A DNA stretch of 42,570 bases from Promethearchaeota archaeon (GCA_008080735.1 SHMW01000029.1:1-42570); one strand, 5' to 3'. Shown: positions 1 through 7,943, counted from the stretch's first letter. Numbers and translations: made by a program. Notes: a model not told the origin generated them from the sequence alone.

Positions 1-119
1 ACTTTAATATCATTATCAAAATTTAACGTTTCTAAGACCGATTGAATGAAGAAAGCATCATTCGATTCCTCTCCAAAATATTCCAGAAATTTAGTTAATA
101 AATGCTCTTTAGATGACAT
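1..119 (-). CDS. 5' part of a hypothetical protein running off the left edge (MSSKEHLLTKFLEYFGEESNDAFFIQSVLETLNFDNDIK...)
   Basis: Reverse-strand ATG at 119-117 with an open frame to base 1; divergent from the hdrA-like operon; not in the ORF track. Confidence 0.6.
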   Translation of the reverse strand, partial: MSSKEHLLTKFLEYFGEESNDAFFIQSVLETLNFDNDIK

Positions 120-258
120 AACCCTTATGAAGTTGTAATGAAGATCTCATTAAATTCGCAAAAATACGAATGTTCAAAAGTTTTATATTTAATTATTATC
201 GTATTTCTAAAAAGATTTTTATTTTTTTTTCAATACATGACTTTTGGAAATACAACAT

Positions 259-297
259 TGTGCGACTAATCTCATACATCAGATGATCAGTCTCACA
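259..297. promoter_or_regulatory. Imperfect inverted repeat TGTGCGACTAATC-N13-GATCAGTCTCACA (possible operator)
   Basis: 13-bp arms (259-271 and 285-297) with 2 mismatches in the divergent intergenic region, just upstream of a TATA-like TTTATAT at 304-310. Confidence 0.4.
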
Positions 298-341
298 CAT
301 AAGTTTATATTTTTCCAAAACATATTTATCATGTTGATTAA

Positions 342-382
342 TTGACTTGTCAAGAAAATATTATTTCAATTTTTCTTGTCAA
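342..382. promoter_or_regulatory. Palindrome TTGAC-TT-GTCAA, direct repeat CTTGTCAA and inverted repeat CAAGAAAA/TTTTCTTG (possible operator of the wHTH-HdrA operon)
   Basis: TTGACttGTCAA at 342-353; CTTGTCAA at 346-353 and 375-382; CAAGAAAA at 351-358 pairs with TTTTCTTG at 371-378; downstream of TATA-like boxes at 304-310 and 323-329. Confidence 0.4.
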
Positions 383-411
383 AAAATATCTATAATAAGA
401 GTTGAGATAAA

Positions 412-2958
412 ACGGACGTCTATTCCATATTATCGCATGATTTTAGAAGGAAAATTCTCCAACTTCTTGAAAACGAGGGTTATATAAGTTATACTGATTT
501 AATGGAGAAAATGGGTCTTGATACTACAGGTCAGCTCAATTTTCACCTAAAAAAATTGGGCTCCTTGGTGGATAAGGATAGCAAATCATATTATTTAACA
601 GAAGACGGAAAACGCGTTCTTAAAATCCTTAATCTAAATAAACGTATTTTGGCTGGAGAGGATATCGATGAATATTTTGATACTAAAGGCTCTGATATTA
701 ATAGGGTAGGTGTAATTATTTGTAATTGTAATACTGAAATTTCAAATGTTGTCAATATTAATTCCTTAGAATCATATATAGGTAAAATTAAAAATGTAGT
801 TTCAGTTAAGATCTTTGCGAACTTATGTCAACAAAAAAATTATTCTCAGATTTCTCGTTGGGTCAAAGAGAATTTTATTAATAAAATTGTAATAGCTGCA
901 TGTTCACCTAAAACCCACCAACCTCTTTTTGAAAAAATCTTTCATGATGTAATCGAATCATCTAATATAGAAATAGCCAATATTCGGGAACAATGTGCAT
1001 GGGTACATCCATCAAACAACACACAAATCGATCCCCTACTTACATTAGAAAAAGCAAAATTATTAATAGAAGCAGCTGTCAAGCGAGTATCTCTACAAAA
1101 AAGTATTAAAGTAAAAAGAGTTGAAGTTGAAAAGAGTTGTGCTGTTATTGGTGGTGGGATTGGTGGAATGACGACCGCTCTTAATTTAGCCCGGTCGGGA
1201 ATCAAGGTGTATTTGATTGAAAAATCTCCTACACTGGGAGGAAAAGTTGCTCGTTGGGACAGAATTTATAATATGGGGGATTGTTCTATATGTTTCATTT
1301 CCGAATTGATCGCGGAGCTTTCCCGTGAAAAGAATATTGAAATACTTACTAATACAGAGGTGACTGATGTATCAGGGGAGGTGGGAAATTTCACTATTGA
1401 ATTAATTAAACAACCGCGATACGTTGATGCTGAAAAGTGTACTGGATGTAAGCAGTGTTTAGAGGTTTGTAGTGTAGAAAAACCAAATCAATACGAATTC
1501 GGATTATCTCCTCGAAAACTTATTTATATACCATTTATTCATTCTTATCCCTATGCACCGACAATCGACCAAGAACATATAAATAAATGTTTAGAATGTA
1601 GAATTTGTGAGAGAGCGTGTGTTAATAATGCCATCGATTTGACAGAAAAGCCAGAGAAAATGCGCATTAAGGTCGGAGCAAAAGTAATCGCGATTGGTGC
1701 TGATCTTACTGATGATCTCAAAGAATATAATTATAATCCACAGAATGATATTATTACTTCTGCAGAGTTTGAAAGAATTCTCTCTTCCGATGGGATAACA
1801 GAGGGAAAATTATTGCGATTATCTGATAAGACGTCTCCGAAAAGCGTCTCAATTATTCAAGATGTAGGACCTTCTGAGTATGAAAACGAATTTAGTGATA
1901 TTATTGCATTGAAATATCTAAACGATATAAAACTCAAAGATCCAGAGTGTGAGGTAAATGTATTTTGCAATCTGAAGCGATATCGAAAAGATCAACAATC
2001 CATGTTAAAGTCAATTGATAGACGATTTTTATATGCAAATGAGATCGAAATAGAACCGAGAGGAGATGGAAACGTAATTATTGCAGATTCAGTGGAATTT
2101 CCTTCAGATTTGATAGTGCTTAACGTTAATCTAGTTCCTAACGAGGATTTGAAAAAATTACGCAAAATTATGGATTTTACTCTGAATGATTATGGATTTA
2201 TGAGTGAGGAGACTTTAGCATCTGGTATATATGGTGTGGGTTCTATTTTTGGCCCCTTAAGCTATCAATCCACAATTGACACAGCGAATAGTGTGGCCCT
2301 TAAAGTGATATCTGTTCTCTCTCAGGATTATCTTATGGCGGAATTTAGCGGAATAGAAGTCGATGAAGATAAATGCGGTTTGTGTGGGCTCTGTGTTAGC
2401 TCTTGTCCATATAATGCTCTTATATTGGAAAATACGAAAATTAGCATAGATAAATTTAAATGTAAAGGATGTGGTGTCTGCGTAAGTGTATGTCCGACTG
2501 ACGCAATTGAAATGAATATCGACAGCTCTGAGAAAATAAACACTACTTTAGAAACCCTATCTAAATTTGATAATGGTCCTAAAATAGTTGCCTTCTGCTG
2601 TAACTCTTGTGGGTACGCAGCCGCAGATGATGCAGGGCTGAAAAGAATACCTTATAAACCCAATGTATTTATAATTAAGGTACCATGTACTGGAAGAGTA
2701 GACGCAAGCTTCATTATTAAAGCATTTGAGTTAGGATTTGATGGAGTAATGGTAGTTGGTTGTAGAAAAGATGCGTGTAGATATATAGATGGTATCCAAA
2801 AAGTAGAAAAAAAAATAGATCTATTAGAAATAAATTTAGGAAAGAAGTATTCCGACCGCGTAATTTTAAAACATATGAACGCGGTGGAAGGGAATAAATT
2901 CGCCGCAAGTATTAATGAATTTTATAAAAAATTAGATGAGGCGGTTCTCATTGAGTAA
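412..2958 (+). CDS. hdrA: Winged-HTH (ArsR-like) / HdrA-like FAD-FeS protein / MvhD (FlpD) triple fusion
   Basis: Frame open from 406 gives DVYSILSHDFRRKILQLL...ISYTDLMEKMGLDTTGQLNFHLKKL...YYLTEDGK (wHTH). HdrA N-domain: RVGVIICNC, AACSP, NIREQCAWVH. FAD motif VIGGGIGG. Four CxxCxxCxxxC ferredoxin motifs. MvhD motifs CCNSCGY, PCTGRVD, GCRKDACRY. First ATG is at 502; ACG at 412 is proposed as the start. Confidence 0.88.
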   Translation, partial: TDVYSILSHDFRRKILQLLENEGYISYTDLMEKMGLDTTGQLNFHLKKLGSLVDKDSKSYYLTEDGKRVLKILNLNKRILAGEDIDEYFDTKGSDINRVGVIICNCNTEISNVVNINSLESYIGKIKNVVSVKIFANLCQQKNYSQISRWVKENFINKIVIAACSPKTHQPLFEKIFHDVIESSNIEIANIREQCAWVHPSNNTQIDPLLTLEKAKLLIEAAVKRVSLQKSIKVKRVEVEKSCAVIGGGIGGMTTALNLARSGIKVYLIEKSPTLGGKVARWDRIYNMGDCSICFISELIAELSREKNIEILTNTEVTDVSGEVGNFTIELIKQPRYVDAEKCTGCKQCLEVCSVEKPNQYEFGLSPRKLIYIPFIHSYPYAPTIDQEHINKCLECRICERACVNNAIDLTEKPEKMRIKVGAKVIAIGADLTDDLKEYNYNPQNDIITSAEFERILSSDGITEGKLLRLSDKTSPKSVSIIQDVGPSEYENEFSDIIALKYLNDIKLKDPECEVNVFCNLKRYRKDQQSMLKSIDRRFLYANEIEIEPRGDGNVIIADSVEFPSDLIVLNVNLVPNEDLKKLRKIMDFTLNDYGFMSEETLASGIYGVGSIFGPLSYQSTIDTANSVALKVISVLSQDYLMAEFSGIEVDEDKCGLCGLCVSSCPYNALILENTKISIDKFKCKGCGVCVSVCPTDAIEMNIDSSEKINTTLETLSKFDNGPKIVAFCCNSCGYAAADDAGLKRIPYKPNVFIIKVPCTGRVDASFIIKAFELGFDGVMVVGCRKDACRYIDGIQKVEKKIDLLEINLGKKYSDRVILKHMNAVEGNKFAASINEFYKKLDEAVLIE

Positions 2959-3715
2959 GCTTAAGTTTTCTATTTCCACCTTAACTTCTTGTAGTGGGTG
3001 TGTGGCATCCCTTATGGCTCTTGATGTATTTCCACAATTTTTAGAACGTACAGAACTTATTTATTTTCCCTTTATGACTGATAGTGAAGAAATTGTAGAA
3101 CATGACATCGCTTTAGTAGAAGGGTGTGTATCAAATCCAAATGATATAGAATTACTCAAAAAAATTAGGACCAATTCTGTTAAGGTCTACGCCTTAGGTT
3201 CTTGTGCTGCATTTGGAGGGATTCTCAGTCTTTCCAACAAAAAGAACGCGGAACCTATAGCAAATTATATAGAAATCGACGGTATGATACCTGGTTGTCC
3301 CCCGGCAGAGAAATTTCTAGGAAATCTACTTATTAGATTAATAGAGAATAAAGAAATTACACTGTCCGAGAAAAATTTATGTGCAACTTGTCCGTTAAGA
3401 GAGACTATGAATCTTTTTAGAACTCCAAAGAGTATCGATACTATCTATTCTAATCCATATGAGTTTTTAGAAAAAAAAGAAGATAGAACGTGTTTTTTAA
3501 ATAGAGGAATTCTGTGTTTGGGGCCAATCACGAGAGATGGATGCGAGCAAAAATGCATTGAAAAGGGAATTCCATGCGAAGGGTGTATGGGCCCGATTTC
3601 TAAAGATTTTACATCAAATGTTGTGAATTTTTTAGGTTTATTTGAAGTATCTGAGAAATTTAAGAAATATAAAGGAATTTATTATCGGTTTTCGAAACCG
3701 CAATTAGAAAAATAA
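2951..3715 (+). CDS. mvhG: Group 3 [NiFe]-hydrogenase small subunit (MvhG-like)
   Basis: CSGC, EG, GSCAAFGG and PGCPP proximal-cluster motifs; C-terminal CATCP...CFL...CLGP...GC...C...PCEGCMGP. TTG at 2951 follows GAGGCGG and overlaps the hdrA stop (ORF track start 2936). Confidence 0.88.
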   Translation: MSKLKFSISTLTSCSGCVASLMALDVFPQFLERTELIYFPFMTDSEEIVEHDIALVEGCVSNPNDIELLKKIRTNSVKVYALGSCAAFGGILSLSNKKNAEPIANYIEIDGMIPGCPPAEKFLGNLLIRLIENKEITLSEKNLCATCPLRETMNLFRTPKSIDTIYSNPYEFLEKKEDRTCFLNRGILCLGPITRDGCEQKCIEKGIPCEGCMGPISKDFTSNVVNFLGLFEVSEKFKKYKGIYYRFSKPQLEK

Positions 3716-3724
3716 GGTGAAATT

Positions 3725-5023
3725 ATGCAAAAAGTTGTTGAGCTATGTAAAAGAGTTGAGGGTCATGGAAAAATAGATATTTACCTTCAAAATGATATCA
3801 TTTCCGAGATTAATTTCGATTTGGCAGCTTACAGAGGGTTTGAAAGTATTTTAAAGAACAAAGACCTACTTGATATTCCGAGAATTGCATCGAGGATATG
3901 CGGTTTGTGTCATGCTTCTCAATCTATTGCTAGTTGTAAGGCTATTGAATCTATTTTCGGGGTACGACCAACAGAGAAATCAATCTTATTAAGACGCTTG
4001 CTAATGATTGGTGAACTCATCAAATCCCATTCAATGCATTTTTTCTTTCAAGCTTTCCCAGATTTATTATATTTATTTGGATATAAGACTAAACCACCTC
4101 AACCAAATGAACTAATACAATTTGACGCTGACTTGACAACAAAATTTTATGAGTTGATTAAAATAGGGAATGATATTGACAGATTATTTGGTGGCAGATC
4201 TATTCATTTAGTAACAACTATTCCGGGATCGACTATCCATAGCAAGACCTTAAAAAATATCAAAATTTCATCCAAATATTTACAGAAGGCGGAAGAGAAT
4301 CTTAATTATATTATAGATCGATTTATAAAATTATTTTCAAAATTTTCTCCTCCTAATTTCTTGGATCTTCACAATCCAATTTATATGAGTCTCAATAATA
4401 ACGAAAGTTATGATAGATATGATGGGAATTTAAAAATGGATTATGGAGATAATAAAATAGTTAAATTCTTTGTCGAAAATTATTTGACATATTTCGATAA
4501 GGATCCAGAATTGCGAGGTATTAATTTTCGCAATGATGAGAGGGTAATTGTGGGACCAATCGCACGTTATAATAATACTAAGAATTTTGTTCAAGAAAAG
4601 TATAGATCCGGAATTAATAAGTTCGACAACACTTGGATCCACAATGGATTATTTTCCAATTTTTTAAGACTTTTAGAGATGGCTCATGAGGTCGAAAGAG
4701 CACTTGATATTATGAACGATCCAATATTGAAAAAACAAGAGGATTATGAGATCCCTAAAAATATTCAAAAAAAGGATGGAATTGGTATAGTTGAGGCTCC
4801 ACGAGGTATTCTGCTCCATCATTATCACTTGGATAAGAATGATAATGTAGATAAAGTCAAACTCTTCATCGCGACCGAAATCAATATTCCCTCTATAAAT
4901 AAAATACTCATGGACTTCTCAAAGGAACTATATAATAAAACTGGGGATATAAATTTAATAAAAGAGAAAGCTCAGATAATTATCAGGTCATTTGATCCAT
5001 GTATTGCCTGCGCTTCACATTAA
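3725..5023 (+). CDS. mvhA: Group 3 [NiFe]-hydrogenase large subunit (MvhA-like), no C-terminal extension
   Basis: RVEGHG; L1 motif RICGLC; HFFFQAFPD; EAPRG; L2 motif DPCIACASH immediately followed by the stop; GGTGA ribosome-binding site at 3716-3720. Confidence 0.92.
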   Translation: MQKVVELCKRVEGHGKIDIYLQNDIISEINFDLAAYRGFESILKNKDLLDIPRIASRICGLCHASQSIASCKAIESIFGVRPTEKSILLRRLLMIGELIKSHSMHFFFQAFPDLLYLFGYKTKPPQPNELIQFDADLTTKFYELIKIGNDIDRLFGGRSIHLVTTIPGSTIHSKTLKNIKISSKYLQKAEENLNYIIDRFIKLFSKFSPPNFLDLHNPIYMSLNNNESYDRYDGNLKMDYGDNKIVKFFVENYLTYFDKDPELRGINFRNDERVIVGPIARYNNTKNFVQEKYRSGINKFDNTWIHNGLFSNFLRLLEMAHEVERALDIMNDPILKKQEDYEIPKNIQKKDGIGIVEAPRGILLHHYHLDKNDNVDKVKLFIATEINIPSINKILMDFSKELYNKTGDINLIKEKAQIIIRSFDPCIACASH

Positions 5024-5029
5024 TATAGA

Positions 5030-5038
5030 TTTTTTTTT
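5030..5038 (+). terminator. Oligo-T archaeal terminator candidate
   Basis: T9 run 7 nt after the mvhA stop. Confidence 0.35.
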
Positions 5039-5119
5039 ATTCCCTCCTTATACACCAACCTTTAATTTTAATCTAATATTAAATGTTCTTAAAATTTTTG
5101 AGACAGTGGTGAAAAAAAA

Positions 5120-6181
5120 ATTCTGAAATTTTTAGTATCATTATTGGATTTTATTATTGTCTCATTTATGATATATCATATAATTAGGTCATGGAATGAG
5201 AAAAATAATACATACTTTAAGATTAATGAAATAATGTATTGTATTCTCACGCTTGCTTTTGCATTTTATTATCCATTTTTTATCACCCATTTTGGGAATG
5301 CTCATCCCGGAATTTTTTATCCTTCGGCTTCTGCTGATTTTATACTCTTAGGAAATCTGTTTATAGTGGGTATGATTTTTCTCATGCTCATTTGGGCTCT
5401 CTCTGCCAAGATACGGACGATCAAAAATCCCCGCTTATTAGAGACTCGGAACAATTATGAAGTCTTCAAAGAACGATTTTTAGAAGAATACTCAAAAAGA
5501 AACAAACTGAAAAGAAAATGTTTTCATACTATTCCGTTTGGAGTAGTGGGAACTGTCGTAATAATTTACTTTTTGTTCTCTCCACTATTAGGAACTCGAT
5601 GGTTTGATTATGCTCGATTTACAATTGTAGTTTTGGGAGTAGATTTTGCCTTTACTTTTATTTTGGGTGATTTGATTCGACTATTAGATTTTAGTTATAT
5701 GCCTCCAATTCCCGCAAAATTATTTCAAAAAGCAATGACTGATGCGGAATTGGATACATTTACTAGTACAAGTGTTATGGTTTTTGGCTTTGGTCCTTTT
5801 CTATTTTTTGATTTTTCAATTTTTTTAATTGTGCTTTTAATCGCTGCTGTGGCCGATGCGTGCGCATCTATGTCAGGATTACTGGCTAAAAATAAGCACC
5901 ACTTCCCTCCAAATACGGATAAAACTATAGAGGGCTATATCGGGGGTGTTGTTTTTACATTCTTATGTACGATTTTTGGCGTTTTCTTTGCCAGTATGTT
6001 TGGATTATCAGTTTGGTCTATTGAAGTTATCTTACTGGTTGCCATAGTTCTTTCGATCACATTCTTCATTATTGATCTTATCACCAGTAAGGTTAAGATT
6101 CAAGATAATTATCTCAATCCATTAATTTGTGGTGCTGTGTTACTTATAACTCTAACACTCTTAGGAGTACCTCTCTTTTAG
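5120..6181 (+). CDS. CTP-dependent polyprenol/phytol/diacylglycerol kinase-like membrane protein
   Basis: RKCFH, DACASMSG, KTIEGYIGG and DNYLNP motifs; many TM helices. ORF track start is TTG 5144; in-frame ATT at 5120 follows GGTGA. Confidence 0.75.
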   Translation: MLKFLVSLLDFIIVSFMIYHIIRSWNEKNNTYFKINEIMYCILTLAFAFYYPFFITHFGNAHPGIFYPSASADFILLGNLFIVGMIFLMLIWALSAKIRTIKNPRLLETRNNYEVFKERFLEEYSKRNKLKRKCFHTIPFGVVGTVVIIYFLFSPLLGTRWFDYARFTIVVLGVDFAFTFILGDLIRLLDFSYMPPIPAKLFQKAMTDAELDTFTSTSVMVFGFGPFLFFDFSIFLIVLLIAAVADACASMSGLLAKNKHHFPPNTDKTIEGYIGGVVFTFLCTIFGVFFASMFGLSVWSIEVILLVAIVLSITFFIIDLITSKVKIQDNYLNPLICGAVLLITLTLLGVPLF

Positions 6182-6239: not shown

Positions 6240-7943
6240 TTAGAAAATATCAAAAATAGAATCTTTTTCAATTAGATCCGCATCTTTTAAGATTTCTCTA
6301 TGGTCAAATGCTAGCGGAATTTTCACTAATTCTTCTGTAGGGATAAATTCTGCTGATAATGCATCCGTTTTTCCCTTGAGTTGATAATCGCCATCTTTTA
6401 TTTTGCATAAAAAAGCCGTTGAATGCACTTTTCCTCTCGGATCTCTGTCAGGATCATCATAATATCCAATTTTCTTTATAATCGAGACATCTAAATTTGT
6501 TTCCTCTTTTACTTCTCGTTTTACCGCATGTTCAAGGGATTCTTTTTTCTGAACATATCCTCCAGGTAAGGCATAATGATTTTGAAAGGGAGGGAAACGA
6601 CGTTTTACCAGAATAATTTTATCCTCCTCTTCATTTAATATAACCGCGTCCACAGTATATTTAATGGCTCCCCGTTTCACTTTAAATTTCACAAACGTAT
6701 AGTATATGACCGCCATTATTAGAATTGAACTAATTATAATAGCTACCACACTATTTAAGAAGATGGCTTGGAAATCCTCGGCATTTAGGCTCAAAGCAAT
6801 CATTGCAAGCTCCACTAAATCTGCGAGAATTCCGGCTCCTAAGAGGAAGTTTAATATGTTCAAAGCTTTTTCAGTTTCTTCCTGATCCTCCTGTACTCGC
6901 TTTTGATGGATTTCGTTCATGGTATTGTATAATAGATCAAACTTTTGATTCATCCTCCCCTTTATGCTATCCAATTCAAATTTGTCGATTAAATGGGTTA
7001 GCACGCTTGTATAATGCTGCCTTCGGTTATAATCTAATTCATTATAAATTATACTCAGCGCATTCTGAAGGATTCCTCTTAAGAATCGTAGATTATTGAT
7101 CTTTTCTTCTAATTTTTCTGTATCAATCCTACCCTCGGAATAGGTGTTTAAAAATAAGATGTCCAAAGAACTATTTATTTCTCTCAGACAAAAAATAATG
7201 GTTCTAATTTGAGCGGCAGGTGTGACAACATATGGCTTCATATATGGCTCAAAAAAGTTTTTATAATTATCTTCTGCCATATACACGAATCCACTATTTC
7301 TATTTATAAAATGCAGCTCGGAGAGTCGATTTGACAAATTATTTTGTATACGATTTTCATATAAGCTGGGAGAATAATCTTCCCACTGACCGGAATAAAG
7401 CACTGTCCAATAAGAAAGATCTTTTTTATAGGTTTCTATAGCTTCTTGGTCCCATTTAATTTTTGGTGGATCCGTCTTATTGGATGTTGCAAAGATATAA
7501 ATTGGACTTTCTAAATCAATTAGGACCTCTTCGGTCATAAATTGTGCTTTATCTTTCAACTCCCGTAATATTATATGAGGTATTTGTTGTATAAGTATCG
7601 GTTTAATCGTTTTCTTTTTTTCTGGATTATCGTTATAATATTCGATTTGAAATTCAAAATAGCCTAAAACATCATAAAATTTATCGGTATTTTCCTTATA
7701 ATAAGGAAATATGGAGATATAATCAACCCAATTGCAGACAATAGAAACATTTTGAGCCATATCAACTAAATTGTTTGCTAATTGTTTAAGATAGGCATCT
7801 TTTTCCGAAATTTTTGAGACTCTTTCTTTCACTATCTTTTCGATACGTTCAGCTATCTCATCCCGATCACATTTATTACTATTTATGAATGCTGAGATAA
7901 ACCAAAACTCTTCATTATAAAAGAAATCTAAGTTTTTTTCCAT
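6240..7943 (-). CDS. Fusion: CorA-like soluble domain, 2 TM helices and C-terminal Nudix hydrolase (ADP-ribose pyrophosphatase type)
   Basis: Nudix box GGYVQKKESLEHAVKREVKEETNL, DPDRDPRG and LAFDH; two hydrophobic helices before it; a long helical stalk upstream. The CorA resemblance is inferred. Confidence 0.75.
   Translation of the reverse strand: MEKNLDFFYNEEFWFISAFINSNKCDRDEIAERIEKIVKERVSKISEKDAYLKQLANNLVDMAQNVSIVCNWVDYISIFPYYKENTDKFYDVLGYFEFQIEYYNDNPEKKKTIKPILIQQIPHIILRELKDKAQFMTEEVLIDLESPIYIFATSNKTDPPKIKWDQEAIETYKKDLSYWTVLYSGQWEDYSPSLYENRIQNNLSNRLSELHFINRNSGFVYMAEDNYKNFFEPYMKPYVVTPAAQIRTIIFCLREINSSLDILFLNTYSEGRIDTEKLEEKINNLRFLRGILQNALSIIYNELDYNRRQHYTSVLTHLIDKFELDSIKGRMNQKFDLLYNTMNEIHQKRVQEDQEETEKALNILNFLLGAGILADLVELAMIALSLNAEDFQAIFLNSVVAIIISSILIMAVIYYTFVKFKVKRGAIKYTVDAVILNEEEDKIILVKRRFPPFQNHYALPGGYVQKKESLEHAVKREVKEETNLDVSIIKKIGYYDDPDRDPRGKVHSTAFLCKIKDGDYQLKGKTDALSAEFIPTEELVKIPLAFDHREILKDADLIEKDSIFDIF

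Follow-up and report, generated by a model that had tools for sequence, protein, structure and literature searches.

The window analyzed here is an entire 42.6-kb contig (C29) from the genome of an Asgard archaeon (Promethearchaeota/Lokiarchaeia-type; 4.1 Mb, 93% complete, ~32% G+C), and all positions are counted from its first letter. Near its start lies a three-gene operon, in which a winged helix-turn-helix (wHTH) is joined to HdrA- and MvhD-like modules in a single protein, hereafter gene A, followed by genes for the small and large subunits of a [NiFe] hydrogenase. The explanation that we favor, and to which its sequence leads us to give about an even chance, is that the operon encodes an active, rewired Mvh-type [NiFe] hydrogenase-flavoprotein that represses its own gene cluster, i.e., a "trigger enzyme". 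Trigger enzymes such as PutA, RbkR, and BirA double as transcription factors. Gene A has the covalently attached DNA-binding domain by which such enzymes are recognized. Matching palindromes lie on its own promoter, and the enzyme therefore probably controls its own genes; as its main targets would be itself and its partners, the pattern is that of trigger enzymes. The operon is laid out as follows.

412-2958, plus strand: gene A, wHTH-HdrA-MvhD fusion (848 amino acids if ACG at 412 is used; 818 amino acids from ATG at 502)
2936-3715, plus strand: MvhG-like [NiFe] small subunit, 259 amino acids (Pfam Oxidored_q6), with a 23-nt overlap with gene A
3725-5023, plus strand: [NiFe] large subunit, 432 amino acids (NiFeSe_Hases), beginning 9 nt past the small-subunit stop
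5030-5038, plus strand: T9 run directly after the large-subunit stop

The reading frame of gene A is open from 406 to its stop codon at 2956-2958 and is preceded by a TGA at 403-405. DUF7347, HdrA-type FAD/Fer4 and FlpD/MvhD domains follow each other within it in that order, so that an initial annotation of this DNA, made from the sequence alone, was right to describe a wHTH-HdrA-MvhD protein in one frame with adjoining hydrogenase subunit genes. Because oligo-T termination is known in archaea, the T9 run is a likely terminator and would mark the end of the three-gene operon. That annotation had also reported hdrB and hdrC as missing, and no CCG (HdrB) domain was found anywhere on the contig; since only 411 nt precede gene A, the absence is limited on the upstream side by the contig end. 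Elsewhere in the same genome there are ~19 CCG genes.

To be more than a curiosity of one assembly, such a fusion should recur, and the initial annotation had proposed a search for conserved fusions with adjacent small- and large-subunit genes. We surveyed 400 genomes of the Asgard phylum, scoring a wHTH and an HdrA N-domain within one reading frame, and found the fusion in ~120 of them, at protein identities down to 36% and in families f1, f2, f4, f5, f6, f19, f21, f28, and f31. The fusion and the order of the genes are conserved in ~70 fetched loci, and ~60 loci have an operon of three genes (four where an frhB-like gene is included). An operon shared by ~120 of 400 genomes in at least nine families is no assembly artifact, and neither a chimera nor a single aberrant assembly accounts for it. 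In ~20 loci a gene of the FrhB family, whose best solved relatives are beta subunits of F420 hydrogenases and dehydrogenases, lies directly upstream on the same strand. Many loci also adjoin an hdrBC-hdrAA-mvhD-frhB operon and a selenocysteine-type hdrA, which in the window genome are found on contig C42. Two complete genomes (G135 and G138) are without the fusion; their hydrogenase large subunits are 26-29% identical to that of the window and stand beside hdrC-hdrB.

Within gene A, the following parts can be distinguished.

412-651, plus strand: winged helix-turn-helix (DUF7347, ArsR-like), residues 1-80, with recognition helix TTGQLNFHLKKL
652-705, plus strand: acidic linker, residues 81-98 (conservation 0.88), with no counterpart in solved HdrA
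706-2556, plus strand: HdrA-like module (phmmer against solved HdrA, 8rvu_a, E=7e-114)
1849-1920, plus strand: site of the canonical HA4 ligands, CVGSRD...YCSRVCC, which here reads SIIQDVGPSEYENEFSDIIALKYL and is without Cys
2584-2940, plus strand: MvhD (FlpD) domain with its conserved Cys (Pfam, 122 bits; solved MvhD chains 8rvu_F/5odc_D, E=1e-25)

The N-terminal region matches Pfam DUF7347 (PF24038), an ArsR-like profile, at 49.8 bits against a curated cut-off of 27.6 (E=4e-13, profile positions 2-75 of 77), and at 55 bits in a genome-wide profile search. An AlphaFold2 model of this region has the order H1-H2-H3-hairpin (wing)-H4, with a predicted local distance difference test score above 90 at residues 11-70. 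When the model was compared with known structures by Foldseek, the top 50 matches were all DNA-binding proteins, and almost all were regulators of the ArsR/MarR/HxlR type; NadR, YodB, BigR, ArsR, NolR, and CadC were matched with a probability of 1.00 and template-modeling scores of 0.5-0.67, at E-values of only 2e-3 to 2e-2. Such weak E-values are usual for a domain this small. The predicted fold is thus that of an ArsR/MarR-type winged helix, as had been supposed. Solved HdrA chains align only from residue 99-100 (numbered from 406), so that the N-terminal 98 residues are additional. Within the protein, conservation peaks in the winged helix (0.92 vs. 0.83-0.87 for the other domains); this domain is basic (median isoelectric point 9.6), and its recognition helix, TGQLNFHLKKL, and its wing are nearly invariant across the family. 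A search for close free-standing relatives gave only fragments of the same fusion at contig ends.

The window genome (G000) encodes a second DUF7347 domain, on contig C31 (L021:1453-3225, plus strand), fused N-terminally to an NrdD-like protein of the anaerobic ribonucleotide reductase family (at least 591 amino acids). Fusions of a wHTH to an enzyme may be a more general feature of this lineage.

If the winged helix binds DNA, its site would be expected close to the operon, and the promoter of gene A does carry a conserved element of ~75 nt, which in 42 loci reads GATCA-TTTATATA-N3-TGACAA-N6-TTATCAT-N3-GATCA...TTATCAAAATAGTCAT. It is always oriented with the operon and lies 75-150 nt ahead of gene A; in loci with an intervening frhB-like gene, it is found ~1,300 nt before gene A, upstream of the frhB-like gene, which is then the first gene of the operon. 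The element is laid out as two 18-bp palindromes, TGAYAA-N6-TTRTCA, 21 bp apart, the first of which begins 3 nt after the TATA box. A protein bound here would extend over the expected transcription start, as archaeal repressors usually do. In the window, the corresponding sequences are as follows.

304-311, plus strand: TATA-like box TTTATATT, aligning with the invariant TTTATATA of the element in the 42 homologous loci
314-331, plus strand: first palindrome, TCCAAA-N6-TTATCA, with a degenerate left half (family consensus TGAYAA-N6-TTATCA)
335-352, plus strand: second palindrome, TGATTA-N6-TTGTCA, 21 bp after the first, matching the consensus at 11 of 12 specified positions
364-381, plus strand: weak third palindrome, TTTCAA-N6-TTGTCA, with an exact TTGTCA half and a left half matching at four of six positions

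The tandem 21-bp layout of the window's palindromes is shared by the homologues. A palindromic operator suited to an HdrA dimer had been anticipated in the initial annotation, and this conserved palindrome on the operon's own promoter would fit that expectation. In distant families (f19, f21, and f31; 36-54% protein identity), where the flanking DNA no longer aligns, GAYAA-N6-TTRTC is still present upstream of the gene, with 13 matches in 6 kb of upstream DNA vs. five in 62 kb elsewhere; for the close loci the figures are 73 matches in 84 kb vs. 16 in 644 kb. A strict 27-nt pattern has 29 sites in 27 of the 135 family genomes and none in the control, and nearly all of them are located at the wHTH-HdrA-MvhD operon or upstream of a stand-alone frhB-like gene. 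There is also a second class of site, TGATAAGA-N17-GAYAA-N6-TTRTC, at the promoters of the neighboring hdrBC-hdrAA-mvhD-frhB and selenocysteine-type hdrA units. This class numbers 50 sites, which are spread over 45 genomes, with none in the control. Of the 92 genomes with the fusion, 42 carry such a site, vs. three of the 43 that lack the fusion (p=4e-6), a comparison in which related genomes are not independent and many of the sites are linked to the operon. The sites cluster within ~14 kb of the fusion, or at its partner genes on other short contigs, and none was found at the frhB-like orthologues of five genomes that lack the fusion.

Elsewhere in the window genome, one perfect intergenic palindrome, TTATCA-N3-TGATAA, was noted on contig C70 (C70:10480-10540; L105:3473-3545, minus strand). 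It is the only such site, lies 7 nt after a TATA-like box and precedes an open reading frame of 77 codons whose product belongs to no known family.

We infer that the fused winged helix is the protein that binds this operator, and that it represses. One could argue instead that the winged helix does not bind DNA at all, and is a docking or oligomerization module of a metabolic complex, with the palindromes either bound by another regulator or acting as elements of the promoter or 5′-untranslated region. In many archaeal and eukaryotic complexes, winged helices are known to mediate contacts between proteins; the acidic linker shows the conservation expected of a segment that packs on the enzyme; the fusion of DUF7347 to the NrdD-like enzyme could mean that the domain is a general appendage; and part of the conserved promoter element lies downstream of the expected transcription start. 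However, the nearest structures are without exception DNA-binding proteins, and nearly always sequence-specific repressors, the domain has a basic character and keeps its recognition helix and wing invariant, and the geometry of the palindromes (18 bp, with a 21-bp period) suits wHTH dimers. Furthermore, the palindromes accompany the fusion, and orthologous promoters in genomes without it do not have them; an Rfam scan of window positions 1-5300 found no relevant family in the operator region. On balance, we think a mere docking role improbable.

For the enzyme to be self-regulating, it should also still be an enzyme, and most of the electron path of its metabolic relatives is retained. Among 61 aligned family members, all 61 keep the N-terminal CxC...C...C, the DCSIC pair, both clusters of each ferredoxin domain (one inserted and one C-terminal), and the MvhD Cys; the GxGxxG motif for flavin adenine dinucleotide (FAD) is likewise retained in the HdrA module. 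What is missing is the set of ligands at CVGSRD...YCSRVCC: all four Cys are replaced in the window protein, and they are conserved at this site in none of the 61 members. By elimination, the missing cluster would be HA4, the cluster by which the high-potential electron travels from FAD to HdrB (PMC13580544). Since the HA4 ligands are lost and hdrBC is absent from the operon, this would not be a canonical H2:heterodisulfide bifurcating complex, and the family-wide loss points to the independence from HdrBC that the initial annotation had supposed. Assembly with HdrBC encoded elsewhere may nevertheless occur, as far as sequence can tell.

Other MvhD and HdrA genes of the window genome, on contigs C42, C13, C49, and C87 (e.g., C42:13636-13995 and C42:14121-16000, minus strand), have in-frame TGA codons at Cys positions, so that, for example, AACSP is encoded as ASA-TGA-TP. 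These are probably selenocysteine forms, which gene callers fragment.

The hydrogenase subunits, too, are close to metabolic enzymes. The best solved match of the small subunit is MvhG (5odc_E, E=1.6e-35), with the cluster Cys aligned, and that of the large subunit is MvhA (5odc_F, E=5e-50). By its best matches, the latter groups with group 3 enzymes rather than with group 2b; it carries the L1 motif RICGLCHASQ and ends in ...DPCIACASH-stop, that is, at the His of the L2 motif. In contrast, solved MvhA (5odc_F) runs 25 residues past this His, and the large subunit thus has no C-terminal extension for an endopeptidase to remove, contrary to what is expected of group 3c. The large subunit had been called tail-less from the outset, and it ends in the same way in 60 of 61 homologous loci. 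HypD is present in the window genome, and a second hydrogenase was not detected in its 93%-complete sequence. Intact [NiFe] motifs and small-subunit Cys, together with HypD and the status of sole detected hydrogenase, are all indicators that the enzyme is active. A HycI-type maturation protease is also encoded (C37:10348-10635; 38 bits), though the detected large subunit has no tail; either a tailed hydrogenase was once present or lies in the missing 7% of the genome, or the protease has another substrate.

A large subunit that stops at the L2 His recalls HoxC/HupV, and the operon might accordingly be read as a dedicated one-component H2/redox sensor, which would turn over little H2, set the redox state of the flavin and iron-sulfur (FeS) centers of HdrA, switch the winged helix and so control hdr-type genes. 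The loss of HA4, and with it the canonical catalytic outlet, would suit such a role, as would the operator sites on the neighboring hdrBC-hdrAA-mvhD-frhB and selenocysteine-type hdrA promoters and the non-ATG starts at about one-quarter of the loci. In addition, family f1 has a second, better-conserved hydrogenase, referred to here as type X, in which, as in Vhu, a small selenocysteine peptide (DCULSCAAH) is separate from the large subunit. This Vhu-like [NiFeSe] enzyme, present in 74 of the 92 f1 genomes with the fusion, could carry the metabolic flux. The 135 genomes of family f1 are divided between the two hydrogenases as follows.

Fusion present, type X present: 74 genomes
Fusion present, type X absent: 18 genomes, the window genome included
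Fusion absent, type X present: 34 genomes
Fusion absent, type X absent: nine genomes

The fusion and type X are therefore distributed independently, and type X was not found in the window genome. An example from the same genus (G277; L106:1330-2757, minus strand) has a type X large subunit that ends in ...DPWID without an L2 motif, followed by a small open reading frame encoding ...YDC-U-LSCAAH plus a tail, with an HdrC-like gene adjoining. By its sequence, this is a Vhu-like split [NiFeSe] hydrogenase.

Several observations argue against a pure sensor. Tail-less large subunits are not diagnostic of sensors, and the sequence belongs with group 3 and not with the group 2b sensors. Neither the relay clusters nor the inserted ferredoxin domain nor the FAD site has been lost, HypD is present, and 18 of the 92 fusion genomes, that of the window among them, have no detectable second hydrogenase. 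The FrhB-like partner, being in the operon or under the operator, is co-transcribed or co-regulated, which suggests metabolic electron flow. Finally, in the five genomes that were checked no palindrome turned up close to type X, and sites lie at the fusion and its partner genes; sites on the fusion's own hdr/frhB cluster and not near type X fit an autoregulating enzyme better than a dedicated H2 sensor. No kinase partner is conserved in the operon (one locus has a downstream kinase, which is not conserved). A pure H2 sensor is thus less likely than an autoregulating enzyme, and we consider it a rather poor bet. The one-component hydrogenase-transcription factor of the initial annotation consequently holds up as regards its architecture, its wHTH fold, and its candidate palindromic operator, but the dedicated sensor role is less well supported.

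The self-regulating hydrogenase also requires that the winged helix is made in full. Here, the window is awkward: codon 412, which occupies the family start position, is ACG, and the stretch from the TGA at 403-405 to ATG 502 contains neither ATG nor GTG nor TTG. Initiation at 502 would remove helices 1 and 2 of the winged helix. More than 60 homologues have ATG, TTG or GTG at this position, and more than 100 homologous protein clusters start with MDIYSILSH.... Over 63 loci, the family start codon is mostly ATG, and the others include TTG, GTG, ACG (L067), CTG (L142), and TTT (L074). Clusters called at 818-821 amino acids had seemed to be further cases of a missing start; three of the four that were checked have a TTG that the gene caller skipped, and one has CTG.

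From these data one might suspect that the regulatory function is decaying in the window genome, and that translation from ATG 502 yields only an 818-residue enzyme whose winged helix is truncated. Besides the ACG, the lost left half of the first palindrome and a Shine-Dalgarno-like sequence that is weaker than those of relatives would agree with decay. Yet the 30 codons ahead of 502 are intact and conserved, with only a few conservative changes relative to the closest homologue (87% identical overall), and ACG recurs at the equivalent codon in an independent genome, with CTG there in another. Decay is accordingly the least probable of the readings considered here, and we deem it very unlikely. 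Judging from the intact upstream codons, translation in the window genome probably initiates at ACG 412 to give the full domain. The complete wHTH of the initial annotation is thus encoded from 412, but the start codon is ACG, and the first canonical start would truncate the domain.

Returning to the self-regulating hydrogenase, its mode of action can be sketched. Electrons from H2 would pass from the large subunit via the three small-subunit clusters to the [2Fe-2S] cluster of the fused MvhD, and from there to the FAD and FeS centers of the HdrA part. With HA4 missing, there would be no outlet to HdrBC, and the outlets left would be the ferredoxin-type domains and, probably, the co-regulated FrhB-like flavoprotein. 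The N-terminal winged helices of an HdrA dimer would bind the tandem 18-bp palindromes, which are situated after the TATA box and before the expected transcription start, and the bound protein would block recruitment of RNA polymerase. A change in the redox state, cofactor content or assembly of the enzyme probably relieves DNA binding. We infer that H2 or redox state may modulate this binding; the specific version, in which H2 oxidized at the Ni-Fe site reduces the flavin/FeS centers of a DNA-bound HdrA dimer, whose winged helices then release (or engage) the tandem palindromes, is put forward tentatively, as a possibility that we ourselves rate well below the autoregulation itself.

A number of points weigh against self-regulation, and keep us from a firmer statement. 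The window's own operator is degenerate, with one poor half-site and one containing a mismatch. A position weight matrix built from the promoters of relatives finds no convincing second site in the window genome, which has no excess of simple palindromes either, and the frhB/hdr cluster on its contig C42 has no clear copy of the operator. The statistic for co-occurrence of the second site class with the fusion is inflated by relatedness and by physical linkage of the sites to the operon. The palindromes could be bound by a separately encoded factor, and, as mentioned above, winged helices serve as protein-protein modules too. With an ACG start, the full winged helix may not be made in this particular organism. 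Lastly, it is hard to see what the HdrA part would catalyze without HA4, which may leave room for a purely sensory role.

How does the operon compare with systems that have been described? All three proteins find their best solved match in the MvhAGD-HdrABC complex of methanogens (PDB 5ODC, 8RVU, and 9SW2), an H2:heterodisulfide/ferredoxin bifurcating complex, with which they have in common the [NiFe] motifs, the small-subunit clusters, the MvhD Cys, the FAD motif, the N-terminal "shuttle" cluster, the Cys pair, and both ferredoxin domains. Unlike that complex, the fusion operon has an extra winged helix and linker (98 residues), an MvhD fused to HdrA, no HA4 ligands, no hdrBC, no cleavable tail on the large subunit, and a palindromic operator on its promoter. 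A C-terminal MvhD fusion and a nearby FrhB-family flavoprotein are also known from Type Ia HdrA (HdrA2-MvhD fusions, e.g., Methanosarcina HdrA2B2C2) and from the FrhB/FdhB-HdrA-MvhD clusters of methanogens and anaerobic methanotrophic archaea (ANME; PMC12054007, PMC5296606). However, these proteins are without a DNA-binding domain, are described together with HdrBC, and are not in one operon with hydrogenase subunits of their own.

Among regulators, the flavoenzyme PutA of enterobacteria carries a ribbon-helix-helix domain, and reduction of its flavin releases the protein from DNA. By analogy, this is the mechanism proposed for the fusion. The archaeal RbkR, a riboflavin kinase with a wHTH, is a validated autoregulator (PMC5397151). 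The fusion shares with both a DNA-binding domain on an enzyme and would also share an operator on its own promoter and a small pathway-specific regulon; it differs in that the enzyme part is unrelated in sequence and is a multi-subunit metalloenzyme fed by a hydrogenase. HoxBC/HupUV (group 2b) are H2-sensing regulatory hydrogenases that work with HoxJ/HupT kinases. Their large subunit stops at the L2 His, and they co-exist with another hydrogenase, as the fusion does in most genomes, whereas the fusion is affiliated with group 3, has no conserved kinase, and would deliver its signal by binding DNA itself instead of through a phosphorelay. SurR of the Thermococcales, an ArsR-type redox-switch regulator of hydrogenase operons, likewise ties an archaeal ArsR-like winged helix to the redox control of hydrogenase genes. 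In contrast to the fusion, whose domain has no Cys and is covalently part of a hydrogenase-linked flavoprotein, SurR is free-standing and has a CxxC switch. No description of a DNA-binding HdrA was found in the searchable literature, in line with the suggestion that the architecture is undescribed.

The genes that surround the operon were also inspected. In the window, a membrane protein of the cytidylyltransferase family (CTP_transf_1; 5144-6181, plus strand) is encoded directly 3′ of the operon, without an evident functional link; a gene of comparable length occupies this position in ~12 homologous loci, and the representative that was scanned has no Pfam match. It is followed by a 567-residue protein (6240-7943, minus strand) with a C-terminal NUDIX domain (residues 430-554) and a long N-terminal part without a Pfam match. 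On the upstream side, ~25 loci (e.g., L052:3240-5653 and its equivalents) have three tandem paralogous genes divergent from the operon, and then a CDC48-type AAA ATPase. One of the three paralogues contains the N-terminal domain of methylene-tetrahydromethanopterin dehydrogenase (Mpt_N), and two have no family match. Extra copies of the palindrome are located in the intergenic region between these genes and the operon.

The operon represents a second, previously undistinguished type of Asgard hydrogenase, which differs both from the hdrCB-linked enzymes of G135 and G138 and from the Vhu-like [NiFeSe] enzyme common in family f1. Having lost HA4 throughout the family, its HdrA is a natural variant that lacks the branch to HdrBC, and bears on the rewiring of flavin-based bifurcation modules. 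Should the winged helix prove to bind the operator, the fusion would be the first flavoprotein linked to a hydrogenase that regulates genes directly, and would add a trigger enzyme to those of archaea. Domain, 18-bp site, and promoter geometry are defined well enough for it to be experimentally tractable. H2 metabolism is central to syntrophy models of the origin of eukaryotes, and the Asgard archaea are the lineage concerned. If the proposed mechanism is true, the availability of H2 would, in these archaea, be read directly at the promoters of hdr/frhB electron-bifurcation genes, without a kinase or a second messenger.

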